Virus record (IMG/VR): IMGVR_UViG_3300025108_004499
Direction: 5' to 3' (one strand)
DNA: 64,000 nucleotides
From: a virus
Made by a program: the position numbers and the translations under genes. Shown piece after piece: positions 43,586 to 53,219 of this stretch (position 1 is the first letter of the stretch; each line of letters starts with the position of its first letter). Under the pieces are notes generated by a model, which saw only the letters and a program-made list of their open reading frames with translations, did no database searches and was not told where the DNA came from.

Positions 43586-43614
43586 AATATACACTCTTTA
43601 TTTTAGTTTGTCAA
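43586..43614 (-). promoter_or_regulatory. Sigma70-type promoter of the leader/tRNA-Trp unit, overlapping a TAAATA
   Basis: TTGACA-17-TATATT. Confidence 0.8.
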
Positions 43615-43771
43615 CATCTTTTTTGTCTGCTCTACCTTTTTTTCCGCAGTGTGGACAATGAAATGTTGTTCGTTCAATGCAATACTTGTCTTCCATAGTA
43701 GCGAATGTAAACCAGCCCTTACATTGAGTGCAGGTTAAATGCCATATGATTTCTTTTACCGCATTGAACAT
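43598..43771 (-). CDS. 57-aa zinc-ribbon protein (not in ORF track)
   Basis: MFNAVKEIIWHLTCTQCKGWF...FHCPHCGKKG. Confidence 0.7.
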   Translation of the reverse strand: MFNAVKEIIWHLTCTQCKGWFTFATMEDKYCIERTTFHCPHCGKKGRADKKDVDKLK

Positions 43772-43798
43772 TGTAAAAGTATTTAGCTTACCTATCTT

Positions 43799-43951
43799 TT
43801 AGATTTTTTGTAATCTTGGATCTGAACTTAGTATGTTCTTTTCAGCTCTTGGTCTAGACAAACGATTCTCAGCCATTTTGCGTATTATTGCTTTATGTGC
43901 TAGTTCTGTTTTTCTTTTCTTACGAGCTAGTTCGAAGTCTTTGTGATTCAT
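43799..43951 (-). CDS. 50-aa basic protein downstream of the glutamine riboswitch (not in ORF track)
   Basis: MNHKDFELARKKRKTELAHKAIIRKMAENRLSRPRAEKNILSSDPRLQKI; GGGAG SD. Confidence 0.75.
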   Translation of the reverse strand: MNHKDFELARKKRKTELAHKAIIRKMAENRLSRPRAEKNILSSDPRLQKI

Positions 43952-43975
43952 AACACTCTCCCTTTTACAGTTAAG

Positions 43976-44021
43976 TGCGTTCCTTCGCTTAGTGCTACTT
44001 CCGGGCTTATTGCCTGAACGT
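43976..44021 (-). ncRNA. glnA-motif (glutamine-I) riboswitch aptamer
   Basis: CGTTC-AGGC-AATAA-GCCC-GGAAGTA-GC-ACTAA-GC-GAAG-GAACGC has P1, P2, P3 and the conserved GGAAGUA/GAAG junction. Confidence 0.8.
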
Positions 44022-44025
44022 AATA

Positions 44026-44403
44026 TTATTTAGCTCTAGATTGGTAGTCTTTTATTGCTGATTTGATTGCATCTTCGGCAAGTACACTGCAATGTATCTT
44101 AACTGGCGGTAGTGCAAGTTCTTCTACAATGTCCATATTCTTAACTGCTGATGCTTCGTCTAGTGTCATTCCTTTTACCATTTCAGTTACTAAACTTGAA
44201 CTTGCTATTGCACTACCGCAACCGTAAGTTTTGAATTTAGCATCTACAATAACGTTATCTTCTACTTCTATCTGTAGACGCATAACATCACCGCAGGCAG
44301 GTGCTCCTACCATTCCTGTTCCGATGTTATCTTTACTAGGATCAAACTTTCCAACGTTGCGGGGGTTTTCGTAATGGTCCATTACTTTTTCTGAGTAGGC
44401 CAT
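44026..44403 (-). CDS. iscU: Fe-S scaffold IscU
   Basis: YSEKVMDHYENPRNVG, PACGD, GCGSAIAS, LPPVKIHCS. Confidence 0.95.
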   Translation of the reverse strand: MAYSEKVMDHYENPRNVGKFDPSKDNIGTGMVGAPACGDVMRLQIEVEDNVIVDAKFKTYGCGSAIASSSLVTEMVKGMTLDEASAVKNMDIVEELALPPVKIHCSVLAEDAIKSAIKDYQSRAK

Positions 44404-44699: not shown

Positions 44700-44789
44700 T
44701 GGCGGAAGATGTAGGATTCGAACCCACGGTAGAGTCACCCCTACGACGGTTTAGTAAACCGCTCCTTTAAACCACTCAGGCAATCTTCC
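44700..44789 (-). tRNA. trnS: tRNA-Ser(ACT), class II
   Basis: GGAAGAT/ATCTTCC, GCGGT-TTACTAA-ACCGT, long variable arm GTAGGG-GTGA-CTCTAC, G73, CCA. Confidence 0.9.
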
Positions 44790-45838: not shown

Positions 45839-46003
45839 CTATAACTCCTCTACAATACCAAGTATTTCTGCAACAAGAAATCCTACGGCTAACCAGCCCC
45901 AACTATATGTAACTAATGCAACTACACAACCTGCAATACGTACTGCACTTTTTACAAGACTAATATAAAAATGTTTCTTACTTACGTCTACTGGTTCAGC
46001 CAT
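45839..46003 (-). CDS. 54-aa membrane protein (not in ORF track)
   Basis: MAEPVDVSKKHFYISLVKSAVRIAGCVVALVTYSWGWLAVGFLVAEILGIVEEL; TAATG coupling to clpP. Confidence 0.65.
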   Translation of the reverse strand: MAEPVDVSKKHFYISLVKSAVRIAGCVVALVTYSWGWLAVGFLVAEILGIVEEL

Positions 46004-46593
46004 TACATTTTCTCCACAATGCGATCAATAAGTCCGTACTCAAGAGCTTGCTGTGCAGACATAAATGTATCTCTATCCATGTCTCTAGTAAAGTCCTCAA
46101 ATGTTTTACCTTTAGTGTTGTGCTTTACATACAAATTAGTAAGCATTTCTTTATAGTGCATAATCTCTTTGTATGAGATTTCAATATCACTAGCCATACC
46201 TCTTGCTCCGCCACTAGGCTGATGAATCATGTGCCTTGCGTGTGGTAACATCATTCTATGTCCTGCTTCTCCTGCCTGTGCTAGGAAACTACCCATTGAA
46301 CATGCTTGACCCATTACAATAGTATGTACTGGTGACTTAATAAATTGCATTGTATCGTAAATGCTTAGACCGTCACTGATAACACCGCCTGGACTATTAA
46401 TATAAAAACTAATAGGCTTACCTGGTGCTTGTGATTCTAAGAATAATAATTGTGATACAATTAGACTTGCTGACATTGAATTAACATCAGTGTCCATAAT
46501 TATAATACGGTCCTTTAGTAGTCGACTATAAATGTCATAACTACGTTCACCTTTAGATTCTTTTTCAACAACAACTGGTACTAAATTAGGCAT
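46003..46593 (-). CDS. clpP: ClpP protease subunit
   Basis: DIYSRLLKDRII, YINSPGG, ACSMGS, MIHQP, MDRD. Confidence 0.95.
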   Translation of the reverse strand: MPNLVPVVVEKESKGERSYDIYSRLLKDRIIIMDTDVNSMSASLIVSQLLFLESQAPGKPISFYINSPGGVISDGLSIYDTMQFIKSPVHTIVMGQACSMGSFLAQAGEAGHRMMLPHARHMIHQPSGGARGMASDIEISYKEIMHYKEMLTNLYVKHNTKGKTFEDFTRDMDRDTFMSAQQALEYGLIDRIVEKM

Positions 46594-51132: not shown

Positions 51133-51184
51133 TACTAACGAGCGTAATGCTTATTGGAAAGCGTACTTACTTACTTCGAAGTAG
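51047..51184 (+). CDS. 45-aa overlapping ORF
   Basis: AGGAG SD 7 nt before MMYAQTANVKIPMEHYIAKLKEHEAKRLSTNERNAYWKAYLLTSK. Confidence 0.35.
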   Translation: MMYAQTANVKIPMEHYIAKLKEHEAKRLSTNERNAYWKAYLLTSK

Positions 51185-53219
51185 CAATAAACACACCGGA
51201 CCAGTCTTTAGGAAGGTCTTGTGTTTTCTGGAATTCACAACGTTCAATCCACATGTCATAGTATGCACTCATTTTGCCATCAAAGTGGCTGTGTAGTGTA
51301 TTACATAATTCTATTGCTTTGTCAAAGTCTTGTGCTAGATATGCTTTGTGCATTTCTTCATGCTTACGTTGTGCTGTACGCCAAGCAGGGCGTCTATTAT
51401 CTAACACTGTCCATATTGTAATACCTACAGTTTTACCTTTAACTGCTAAATCGTCGATTTTTAAATAGAAAAAGTCGGTTTTAGTACGTTGGTATGTCGC
51501 ATCTCCAACAAGTAATACACATCCGTATTCTTTACACTTGCTTTCAATACGAGCGGCTGTACTGACTGAGTCTCCAAGGACGTCATAACTGTGTCGGGCT
51601 GTTGAACCCATCTCGCCAAGATAGCCAAGCCCAGTATTAATACCAGCCCCCATACCCACTGGGGGTCTTCCTTCTTTGGTAATCTTATCATTAAATATCT
51701 CCACTGCTTTTAACATATCCAATCCGCATTGTACTGCTGTCTTTGGATGTTGCGGATCTTCAATTGGTGCATTGTGTACGTGCATACTTGCATCGCCAAT
51801 GTACTTAATAACCATACCGTCTGCGTCAAGTATAGGTTGTGTGATGGCATCCATGTAACCATTCATAATTTTTGTTAGACCTTTTACATCATCACCAAAT
51901 GATTCACCTAATGGTGTAAAGCCTCTTAGGTCTGAGAAACAAATTGAAACTTCTTTCTTCATACCATCTTTTATAAGTGCAGGATTCTCTTGTAGCATAC
52001 GTACTACTGTTGGTGATGCATATCCTGCAAACTGTTTTTTGATTGCTTGTTTCTGTGCATACTCACTTACAAATCTATTAAAGATTGCATGTAAGCCTAC
52101 TACAAATACAGTTACCATAGGCATTGTACCATCTAACAAGTACAAATAATTAACCCATGCATAATGTACACTATAGGTGAGTCCTCCCACAAACGCAACT
52201 AATATTCCTCCAGCCAACCAGTAAGGGGCAAACCTTCCAACGCACACCAGTGCTATGCCTAGTAGTCCGGTTGTGATAAGCTCTGCTAAGAATGCCCAAT
52301 AGGGACGCTCAATTTGATCGCCATCTATCACAGTTTGAAGTGTTACTGCGGCCGGTATATAGTTGTGTTGTGGTCCAGTCGGACTAGCGATTAAACCACC
52401 TATGCCTTCTGCGGTTACTCCTATAATAACAGTCTTCCCTTCAAACGATCTATAATCATCTGAGGCCGCACTAATAGTTTCAAATTGTTTATTCCATCTC
52501 AACCATATCTGTGCATTAGGATCTGTTTTTATAATTGGGTAACCAGGAACTCGTACTGCTTCTATTCCACCACCAGCTTCTTTAACTTGGTAACTAGGGT
52601 TTCCTGTTGCTACACGAATAACTTCAATTGCTAAAGCGGGATACGTGTCTTCGCCGACACGCATTAGGAGTGGTACTCGTCTTACAACACCGTCGATTTC
52701 TGGGTTAGTGTTCAACACGCCCACACCGTCAGCATTATCTCCTAGCAATTGGATTGGTCCTAACATTCCTGGCCATTCAAACATATATGGCACAGGATCA
52801 CCAATTTTCGCAATGCCTCGAGGGACCGCATTACGATTGGCTTGGGTACTTCCTACTTGTGCTATTACAACACCGTTACCCGCAAGTGCTTCAGCTAATT
52901 GAATATCACCACCTAGTCTATCTGTCTCAGACATGATAACAGGAATTACGATGATACCAGCACCTGCTTCGCGAAGTTTCCAGATTATATCTGCAATTAT
53001 ATCACGCTTCCAGGGCCATTGCCCGTACTTTTCAATGGCGGCTTCGTCAATGGTCACGATGCCGACGTCCTGGGATAATGTTGCCTTATCAGTTTGTTGA
53101 AGTAAGTCGAATTGCTTAAGGCGAGCAGTCTGCACTAATTGACCATCTGTGTAATGCAGACCTATCATAATGAACGCTGTGACAAACGCCACAGTCCAAT
53201 GTGTAATATACTTCGTCAT
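51171..53219 (-). CDS. CHASE2-domain class III adenylate cyclase with C-terminal TPR-like domain
   Basis: IDEAAIEKYGQWPW.R, DGVVRRVPL, three TM, FSDLRGFT, KYIGD, GINTG, GDSVSTAARIE, VKGK. Confidence 0.93.
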   Translation of the reverse strand: MTKYITHWTVAFVTAFIMIGLHYTDGQLVQTARLKQFDLLQQTDKATLSQDVGIVTIDEAAIEKYGQWPWKRDIIADIIWKLREAGAGIIVIPVIMSETDRLGGDIQLAEALAGNGVVIAQVGSTQANRNAVPRGIAKIGDPVPYMFEWPGMLGPIQLLGDNADGVGVLNTNPEIDGVVRRVPLLMRVGEDTYPALAIEVIRVATGNPSYQVKEAGGGIEAVRVPGYPIIKTDPNAQIWLRWNKQFETISAASDDYRSFEGKTVIIGVTAEGIGGLIASPTGPQHNYIPAAVTLQTVIDGDQIERPYWAFLAELITTGLLGIALVCVGRFAPYWLAGGILVAFVGGLTYSVHYAWVNYLYLLDGTMPMVTVFVVGLHAIFNRFVSEYAQKQAIKKQFAGYASPTVVRMLQENPALIKDGMKKEVSICFSDLRGFTPLGESFGDDVKGLTKIMNGYMDAITQPILDADGMVIKYIGDASMHVHNAPIEDPQHPKTAVQCGLDMLKAVEIFNDKITKEGRPPVGMGAGINTGLGYLGEMGSTARHSYDVLGDSVSTAARIESKCKEYGCVLLVGDATYQRTKTDFFYLKIDDLAVKGKTVGITIWTVLDNRRPAWRTAQRKHEEMHKAYLAQDFDKAIELCNTLHSHFDGKMSAYYDMWIERCEFQKTQDLPKDWSGVFIATSK

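Follow-up and report, generated by a model that had tools for sequence, protein, structure and literature searches.

A glutamine-I riboswitch with a Shine-Dalgarno hairpin precedes a conserved phage micro-protein gene: a candidate cassette for glutamine-gated translation in large marine viruses

We analysed a stretch of viral DNA of 64,000 nucleotides (nt), IMG/VR record IMGVR_UViG_3300025108_004499, hereafter called the window, whose minus strand carries a glutamine-I (glnA-motif) riboswitch directly upstream of a micro-protein gene of 50 codons. A promoter-like element, a 5'-terminal aptamer, a hairpin covering the Shine-Dalgarno (SD) sequence and the small gene follow one another and probably act together as a cassette in which glutamine gates translation. 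Viral riboswitches are rare, and their targets have mostly been guessed. In this case a target can be given, namely a conserved micro-protein confined to phages, which would be made only in the glutamine-rich infected cell.

To identify the RNA, we scanned the whole window with Rfam, which returned RF01739 as the only riboswitch, the other matches being five tRNAs. The match spans the full model (1-53) on the minus strand and scores 42.5 bits against a gathering score of 35 (E-value of 6.8e-06 for the whole window and 4.8e-08 locally). An original prediction made from the sequence alone had called this element a glutamine-I aptamer core and had named the Rfam glnA model as the check; the score and the covarying helices described below bear it out. 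All strongly conserved letters of the family are matched in the model alignment (CGUUCA, CGGAAGUA and GAAGGAACGC, including the C after P1), and the conserved core letters form invariant or nearly invariant columns in the family leader alignment. The C after P1 is invariant in both of our leader alignments. This residue corresponds to the 'linchpin' (C60 in Synechococcus, C68 in Synechocystis), which, once glutamine is bound, pairs at long range with a G of the core (PMC6212724). The aptamer had also been described as minimal, and indeed P2 and P3 comprise three and two pairs, respectively, against five and three in the Rfam consensus, while P2 ranges from 3 to 5 pairs among the relatives.

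We then collected peptide-encoding loci from IMG/VR, where at least 578 stretches matched and 80 were kept. Under a strict pattern, the aptamer was found directly 5' of the peptide gene in 68 of 85 peptide-encoding loci, and two further loci (L067 and L068) carry the core variant UGGAAGUA, with U replacing C. The linker between aptamer and open reading frame (ORF) is mostly 25 nt long and ranges from 19 to 27 nt across lineages. A first, structure-aware leader alignment was built with a covariance model from 37 distinct leaders. Standard pairs occupied 98.7% of its paired cells and 6 of its 10 pairs changed on both sides; the observed covariation was reached by none of 500 shuffles, and the signal was lost when the partners were slid by 1-3 columns. 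A second alignment, of 53 leaders ahead of several different ORF families, gave comparable figures (97.2% paired, 0/500 shuffles). Across the aptamer alignment, P2 pairs occur as UA, AU, GC and CG. Our results show that the window RNA is, by sequence and structure, a glnA-motif (glutamine-I) riboswitch. In the large contigs related to the window, there is one cassette per genome, single or tandem, and always at the peptide gene. The window has one aptamer, and some close relatives (L041-L043 and L058; contigs G047 and G049) have tandem aptamers before the same peptide gene.

Downstream of the aptamer, the minimum-free-energy fold of the leader contains a hairpin that sequesters the SD sequence. 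This hairpin is the CACUU:GAGUG pairing noticed in the original prediction, and its layout is the one postulated for the gifB leader (PMC6212724). The conserved C is paired in the hairpin in 90 of 98 distinct viral leaders. The arms vary by lineage and are complementary in each (GCACUU/GAGUGU, GCACCU/GGGUGU, GCUCUUU/AAGGAGU and GCAUCUUU/AAGGAGAUGU), with the shorter cores ACUU/GAGU, ACCU/GGGU, CUCUUU/AAGGAG and AUCUUU/AAGGAGAU. Within the alignable class of 53 sequences, 96.8% of the hairpin cells were paired, and one hairpin pair was U-A in 26 sequences, C-G in 23 and unpaired in 2. Conservation of the hairpin despite lineage-varying arms, together with the U-A/C-G pair, thus supports a functional SD hairpin without proving the direction in which it switches.

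The micro-protein gene encodes a basic product of 50 residues (15 K/R versus 6 D/E, counted from the translation). Both the SD sequence and the ORF were found on the minus strand where they had been predicted. Relatives of the peptide form 36 clusters at 90% identity, and a profile search of 1.8 billion protein representatives yielded 53 clusters at 50% identity, nearly all of them about 50 amino acids (aa) long. A 380-aa profile match (P0081) was discarded, being a repeat protein with a short motif in common that we attribute to chance. The exact peptide sequence of the window occurs on 46 contigs. When 40 distinct ungapped coding sequences were compared with that of the window, the median ratio of nonsynonymous to synonymous substitution rates (dN/dS) was 0.13, and third codon positions varied at 47 of the 50 codons versus 30 and 28 for positions 1 and 2. 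The remaining five frames at this place carry stop codons. The 50-codon ORF is a real gene under purifying selection.

Homologues annotated as hypothetical, with 36-48% identity, were found in four Pelagibacter phages: HTVC023P (gp47), HTVC103P (gp49), HTVC104P (gp51) and Mosig (Mosig_00116). Mosig has an RF01739 match of 50 bits directly 5' of the peptide gene, and no RF01739 match was found at the peptide gene in the three podoviruses HTVC023P, HTVC103P and HTVC104P. The protein therefore exists independently of the switch, and a comparison of these sequences suggests that the myovirus lineages examined placed the peptide gene under glutamine control. We found the peptide once in 185,579 genomes representing bacterial and archaeal species, together with the riboswitch, on a Mosig-like phage contig in the bin of a marine metagenome-assembled genome (MAG). 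AlphaFold2 run with the family alignment predicted a helix at residues 3-32 (predicted local confidence, pLDDT, of 86-96) followed by a conserved tail with pLDDT of about 60; in the tail, RP and one N are invariant, and the C-terminus reads Q-[KG]-I. A basic helix with a conserved, apparently disordered tail would suit a small protein that binds a host or phage target and that may fold upon its partner. Searches of the peptide gave no convincing match to Pfam, PHROG or PDB chains, and neither a signal peptide nor a membrane segment. No neighbouring gene is shared by the lineages, and those that follow the peptide gene in HTVC023P and HTVC104P are unrelated. The family is phage-only and has no known relatives.

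Upstream of the aptamer, the TAAATA of the window starts 12 nt 5' of the first P1 residue, a C, and the CTAAATA that contains it fits 7 of the 8 letters of the T4 late octamer TATAAATA (no -35 element). At a T4-type late promoter placed in this way, transcription would start a few nt before P1, so the position of the element relative to the aptamer points to a transcript that begins a few nt 5' of P1. At the peptide loci, TAAATA lies a few nt 5' of the aptamer whether this follows iscU, another gene, a rho-independent terminator or a tRNA. We also assembled a viral sample of 120 loci picked by aptamer pattern alone, with 111 distinct upstream sequences. TAAATA starts at -11 to -15 from the aptamer in 60 of these 111, with the mode at -12 as in the window, and lies within the last 22 nt in 68, whereas equal-sized control stretches gave 5-7 of 111. 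Directly ahead of it, the commonest dinucleotides are TA (22), giving the T4 consensus, and AC (21). This positional peak favors the predicted late-type promoter and the view that the gene forms a short transcription unit of its own, which would be a separate late one. A second CTAAATA (43780-43786, minus strand) stands directly past the peptide stop codon and is followed by a 57-codon ORF within 43598-43786, whose product has two CxxC pairs and is zinc-ribbon-like; to judge by the motif, the gene after the peptide gene may have its own late promoter.

Positions of the cassette parts and of the upstream neighbour within the window.
Feature	Position	Strand	Basis or remark
CTAAATA, T4-type late-promoter-like element	44027-44033	minus	Overlaps last codons and stop of iscU; putative promoter
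Glutamine-I (glnA-motif) riboswitch aptamer	43974-44022	minus	Rfam RF01739 and covariation
Aptamer P1, CGUUC/GAACG	44020-44016 with 43982-43978	minus	
Aptamer P2, GGC/GCC	44014-44012 with 44006-44004	minus	
Aptamer core CGGAAGUA (E-loop strand)	44003-43996	minus	
Aptamer P3, GC/GC	43995-43994 with 43988-43987	minus	
GAAG after P3, then conserved C directly 3' of P1	C at 43977	minus	
SD-sequestering hairpin (expression platform)	43953-43978	minus	Minimum-free-energy folds
Hairpin arms, GCACUU/GAGUGU	43978-43973 with 43958-43953	minus	
Inner pairing, CU/GG	43970-43969 with 43962-43961	minus	Covers part of the SD sequence
Shine-Dalgarno sequence GGGAG	43958-43962	minus	6 nt ahead of AUG; conserved in all family leaders
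AUG of the micro-protein	43949-43951	minus	25 nt past the aptamer
50-codon micro-protein gene, stop included	43799-43951	minus	ORF
iscU (NifU_N scaffold protein), upstream neighbour	44026-44403	minus	Pfam PF01592, E 2.5e-52; stop codon 44026-44028; outside the switch, its last codons hold the promoter-like element

In the mechanism that we propose, the SD hairpin would block the ribosome when glutamine is scarce. With glutamine in the millimolar range, the aptamer would compact and take up the conserved C in a long-range pair with its core, after which the P1-attached hairpin would be destabilised and the micro-protein translated. The switch would thus be translationally ON in nitrogen-replete cells, late in infection. 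Klahn et al. (2018) called the mode of action of type-1 switches unclear and postulated a mechanism from the structures of Ren et al., in which the ligand-bound C pairs with the core G; otherwise the C and its 3' neighbours pair with the ribosome-binding region, an inhibitory helix that glutamine melts (PMC6212724). In vivo, a reporter behind the Synechocystis gifB leader rises after an ammonium upshift in a P1-dependent manner, that is, this leader is ON with glutamine (PMC6212724). By analogy, we consider ON the likelier direction for the window as well. The lineage-varying expression platform also offers natural variation with which to probe how ligand binding by type-1 aptamers is coupled to translation.

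The cassette is not tied to a single gene family. In the 120 viral loci sampled by aptamer pattern, a short ORF (20-81 codons) was found behind an SD sequence in 108. By sequence, these cargo ORFs form 15 clusters, 8 of them with two or more loci and 7 with one; the largest contain 29, 18, 16, 15 (the family of the window) and 11 loci. The products are mostly basic, as judged from the tabulated cluster examples, and one cluster includes ORFs that match DUF4278 above the Pfam cut-off. Most of the products belong to no named family. The family of the window showed no profile-profile similarity to two other cargo families. The same slot therefore holds several unrelated micro-proteins in hundreds of marine viral contigs.

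RF01739 matches of up to 68 bits were also found, often in tandem, in 20 of 46 genomes of one marine bacterial order, that of the MAG 'Rickettsiales bacterium MED606', whose bin holds the Mosig-like peptide contig. Several of these chromosomal matches (G012, G020 and G029) lie more than 100 kb into their contigs. We inspected 12 bacterial loci (L087-L098; genomes G003-G034), reading the following ORFs without a family search. The riboswitch is followed by a 467-aa protein read as glnA in 5 of the 12, by a 405-aa multi-pass membrane protein read as amtB in 1, by a secreted-looking protein of 110-127 aa in 4 and by a 35-codon basic ORF (in one case 31 codons, cut by the contig end) in 2. One of the 467-aa proteins (P0089) bears the NCBI name type I glutamate--ammonia ligase, from a 'Pelagibacterales bacterium'. 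These associations agree with the metagenomic ones of Weinberg et al. (PMC2864571). With RF01739 present in a marine bacterial order, the stated restriction of the switch to genomes of cyanobacteria needs qualification.

What the micro-protein does is a separate question from how it is regulated. The original prediction had likened it to the cyanobacterial inactivators of glutamine synthetase (GS), IF7 and IF17 (encoded by gifA and gifB). We searched 28 family members for DUF4278 (PF14105) and obtained no match in any of them (hmmscan at E<=10), while hhalign of the family alignment against viral DUF4278-like ORFs gave a probability of 0.08. As a positive control, other riboswitch-linked viral ORFs matched DUF4278 at 26-30 bits versus a cut-off of 25.3. 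With no PDB match either, the peptide was rejected as a relative of IF17/IF7, since the DUF4278 signature is absent, and the likeness is regulatory only, both being small basic proteins encoded directly behind a glutamine aptamer. Of the original prediction as a whole, the riboswitch with its regulated small gene stands, but the likeness to GS inactivators found no support.

The protein could still be a functional analogue of IF7/IF17. Such a protein would be made at high glutamine, bind the host GS and shut it down, thereby saving ATP and glutamate for the phage, which is compatible with the proposed switch mechanism. In cyanobacteria the riboswitch class is tied mainly to gifB/DUF4278 (PMC6212724), and in viral contigs the same promoter-aptamer-SD slot holds DUF4278 ORFs, three of them above the Pfam cut-off. 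Furthermore, the window peptide is small, basic and largely disordered outside one helix, and MAGs, one of them labelled Pelagibacterales by NCBI, carry the riboswitch class on their own glnA. Yet neither hmmscan nor hhalign relates the peptide to DUF4278, it has no PDB relative, and the homologues of the three Pelagibacter podoviruses lack the riboswitch and lie in gene blocks that are late or on the lysis side. The slot does not define function, as it is shared by at least seven other unrelated cargo families. A complex prediction with two GS copies (P0089) and the peptide alignment scored 0.00; having been run without controls, it speaks neither for nor against binding. A role as GS inactivator is therefore an analogy, built on the regulatory slot held in common with DUF4278 genes in other viral contigs, and we regard it as doubtful.

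The protein might instead have no action on nitrogen metabolism and be a late structural, DNA-associated or lysis-timing factor, with glutamine tuning its dose to the biosynthetic capacity of the host. The late-type promoter context and the strongly basic protein are in keeping with such a role, as is the position of the gene in the podovirus HTVC023P, two genes before an M15 endolysin, and Buchholz et al. speculated that the Melnitz riboswitch was linked to lysis timing (PMC9004378). However, the peptide has no signal peptide or membrane segment, no neighbour conserved across lineages and no match to a structural-protein family, and this role appears unlikely.

Alternatively, the switch could be OFF with glutamine, which would stabilise P1 and an SD hairpin stacked on it, the protein being made only at low glutamine. 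The hairpin does adjoin P1, which would permit stacking. In bacteria, glnA and amtB follow the same aptamer class and would be expected to be repressed by glutamine; the direction is therefore not set by the aptamer alone. In addition, nearest-neighbour modelling with the conserved C blocked cost the hairpin only about 1.2 kcal/mol and left the SD Gs about 90% paired; it reproduced no switch, and the near absence of SD release on withdrawal of the C suits an OFF switch. Because modelling barely frees the SD sequence, the case for ON depends on the precedent in cyanobacteria and on tertiary effects. On the other hand, the sole tested type-1 example with this layout, in which the C pairs with the ribosome-binding site, turns ON with glutamine, and bacterial glnA leaders have platforms of quite another kind, which are longer and put the start codon about 80-95 nt away. 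We therefore see an OFF switch as improbable.

Besides the modelling and the glnA/amtB loci of the MAGs, several observations weigh against a glutamine-gated ON cassette. Two-sided covariation is limited to one hairpin pair in the alignable class, and the 3' partner of this pair sits in the SD-like stretch, which is itself under selection. CTAAATA is not enriched across the window, with 15 occurrences versus 18.5 expected, and of the T4-type late transcription machinery only a gp44-like clamp loader was identified in the window, where no search was made for a gp55-type sigma factor. Both P2 and P3 are only a few pairs long, and the Rfam score exceeds the cut-off by just 7.5 bits. Finally, that this RNA binds glutamine, that CTAAATA acts as a promoter and that the switch is ON are inferences, as is any role given to the protein. 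That the aptamer match itself is a chance or decaying element, as its modest score and very short stems might suggest, or that it acts on the 3' end of iscU, is very improbable given the covariation and near-perfect pairing over dozens of distinct leaders, the nearly fixed aptamer-ORF distance and the recurrence of the unit behind terminators, a tRNA and unrelated genes, which shows that it travels with the ORF and not with iscU.

On a broader view, tentative and of low probability, phages of SAR11- and OM43-type hosts as well as cyanophages may carry a modular cassette whose interchangeable cargoes, the 50-residue family among them, are unrecognised glutamine-gated effectors that redirect host nitrogen assimilation or shut it down. 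Such cargoes could include GS inhibitors fitted to non-cyanobacterial GS. SAR11-type hosts lack the usual PII/NtrBC control. If the effector view is true, the window gene would be a first handle on a GS inhibitor for these hosts. An action of these proteins on nitrogen assimilation, if there is one, would reveal how the metabolism of the most abundant marine bacteria is steered by phages and would provide new small inhibitors.

The phage itself is a large (jumbo-type) marine myovirus. The clamp loader of the window is 55% identical to that of PA5oct-like jumbo Pseudomonas phages, its closest matches being jumbo phages of Proteobacteria, and a related contig of 221 kb was rated 60% complete. 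A non-cyanobacterial host had been suggested from the sequence. The clamp loader, the peptide homologues in Pelagibacter phages, which bear on the host, and the absence of psbA from five related contigs, all of them incomplete, make a non-cyanobacterial marine host plausible. The window also encodes a full ClpP protease (46003-46593, minus strand; Pfam E 7.6e-74) and a CHASE2-domain adenylate/guanylate cyclase (51171-53219, minus strand). ARAGORN predicted a tRNA-Ser with anticodon ACT (44700-44789, minus strand), in which the wobble A is unusual for serine AGY decoding. The window and a Mosig-like contig, which represent unrelated phage lineages, both have an Fe-S assembly gene directly upstream of the cassette, namely iscU and an IscA/HesB-type gene (Pfam Fe-S_biosyn, L085:3163-3471), respectively; this may be coincidence.

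Glutamine riboswitches are already known from phages of streamlined marine heterotrophs (SAR11 and OM43), namely from Methylophilales phage Melnitz, Pelagibacter phage Mosig and pelagimyophage metagenomic genomes (Buchholz et al. 2022, PMC9004378). In that work, the switch was treated as part of, or as controlling, the transfer-messenger RNA (tmRNA) gene, and no downstream ORF was named (PMC9004378). Mosig has the same riboswitch-peptide unit as the window. The Melnitz leader is 89% identical to that of the window over 56 nt, but it precedes an ORF of another family, and the phage of the window is of another type, with a clamp loader nearest to PA5oct-like jumbo phages. In Melnitz (MZ577097.1; L219:884-1052), the riboswitch occupies the 3' end of the feature annotated as SsrA and is followed by the same kind of SD hairpin and by an unannotated 32-codon ORF (L219:954-1052, plus strand), at whose place the record annotates a 33-codon ORF on the opposite strand. 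This 32-codon ORF is a member of the largest cargo cluster, and an annotated late-transcription co-activator adjoins the cassette. The presence of an unannotated ORF behind the switch makes control of tmRNA doubtful, and judging from the sequence the published interpretation probably missed a small gene in Melnitz.

Outside phages, the closest counterpart is the gifB (IF17) leader of Synechocystis sp. PCC 6803 (PMC6212724; RF01739), in which the same aptamer family occupies the 5' untranslated region of a gene for a small basic protein and the conserved C and the bases that follow it are likewise complementary to the ribosome-binding region. In contrast to gifB, the window unit is viral, its cargo is not DUF4278, its P2 and P3 are shorter and its host is probably not a cyanobacterium; it has a late-promoter-like element where gifB has an NtcA-regulated promoter. 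Furthermore, the gifB leader was shown to raise translation with rising glutamine, whereas the window is known from its sequence. The glutamine-II riboswitch (Downstream-peptide motif, RF01704; Weinberg et al. 2010, PMC2864571) is also a glutamine-sensing leader before a very short conserved ORF, of 17-100 codons, in marine picocyanobacteria. Unlike the window, it belongs to another aptamer class, with two hairpins and a pseudoknot, is cyanobacterial and has DUF4278-like cargo. Compared with these systems, the aptamer class and its presence in such phages were known, and what is new here is the regulated gene family, its spread over unrelated SAR11-type phages, the covarying SD hairpin and the modular cassette with its many cargoes.

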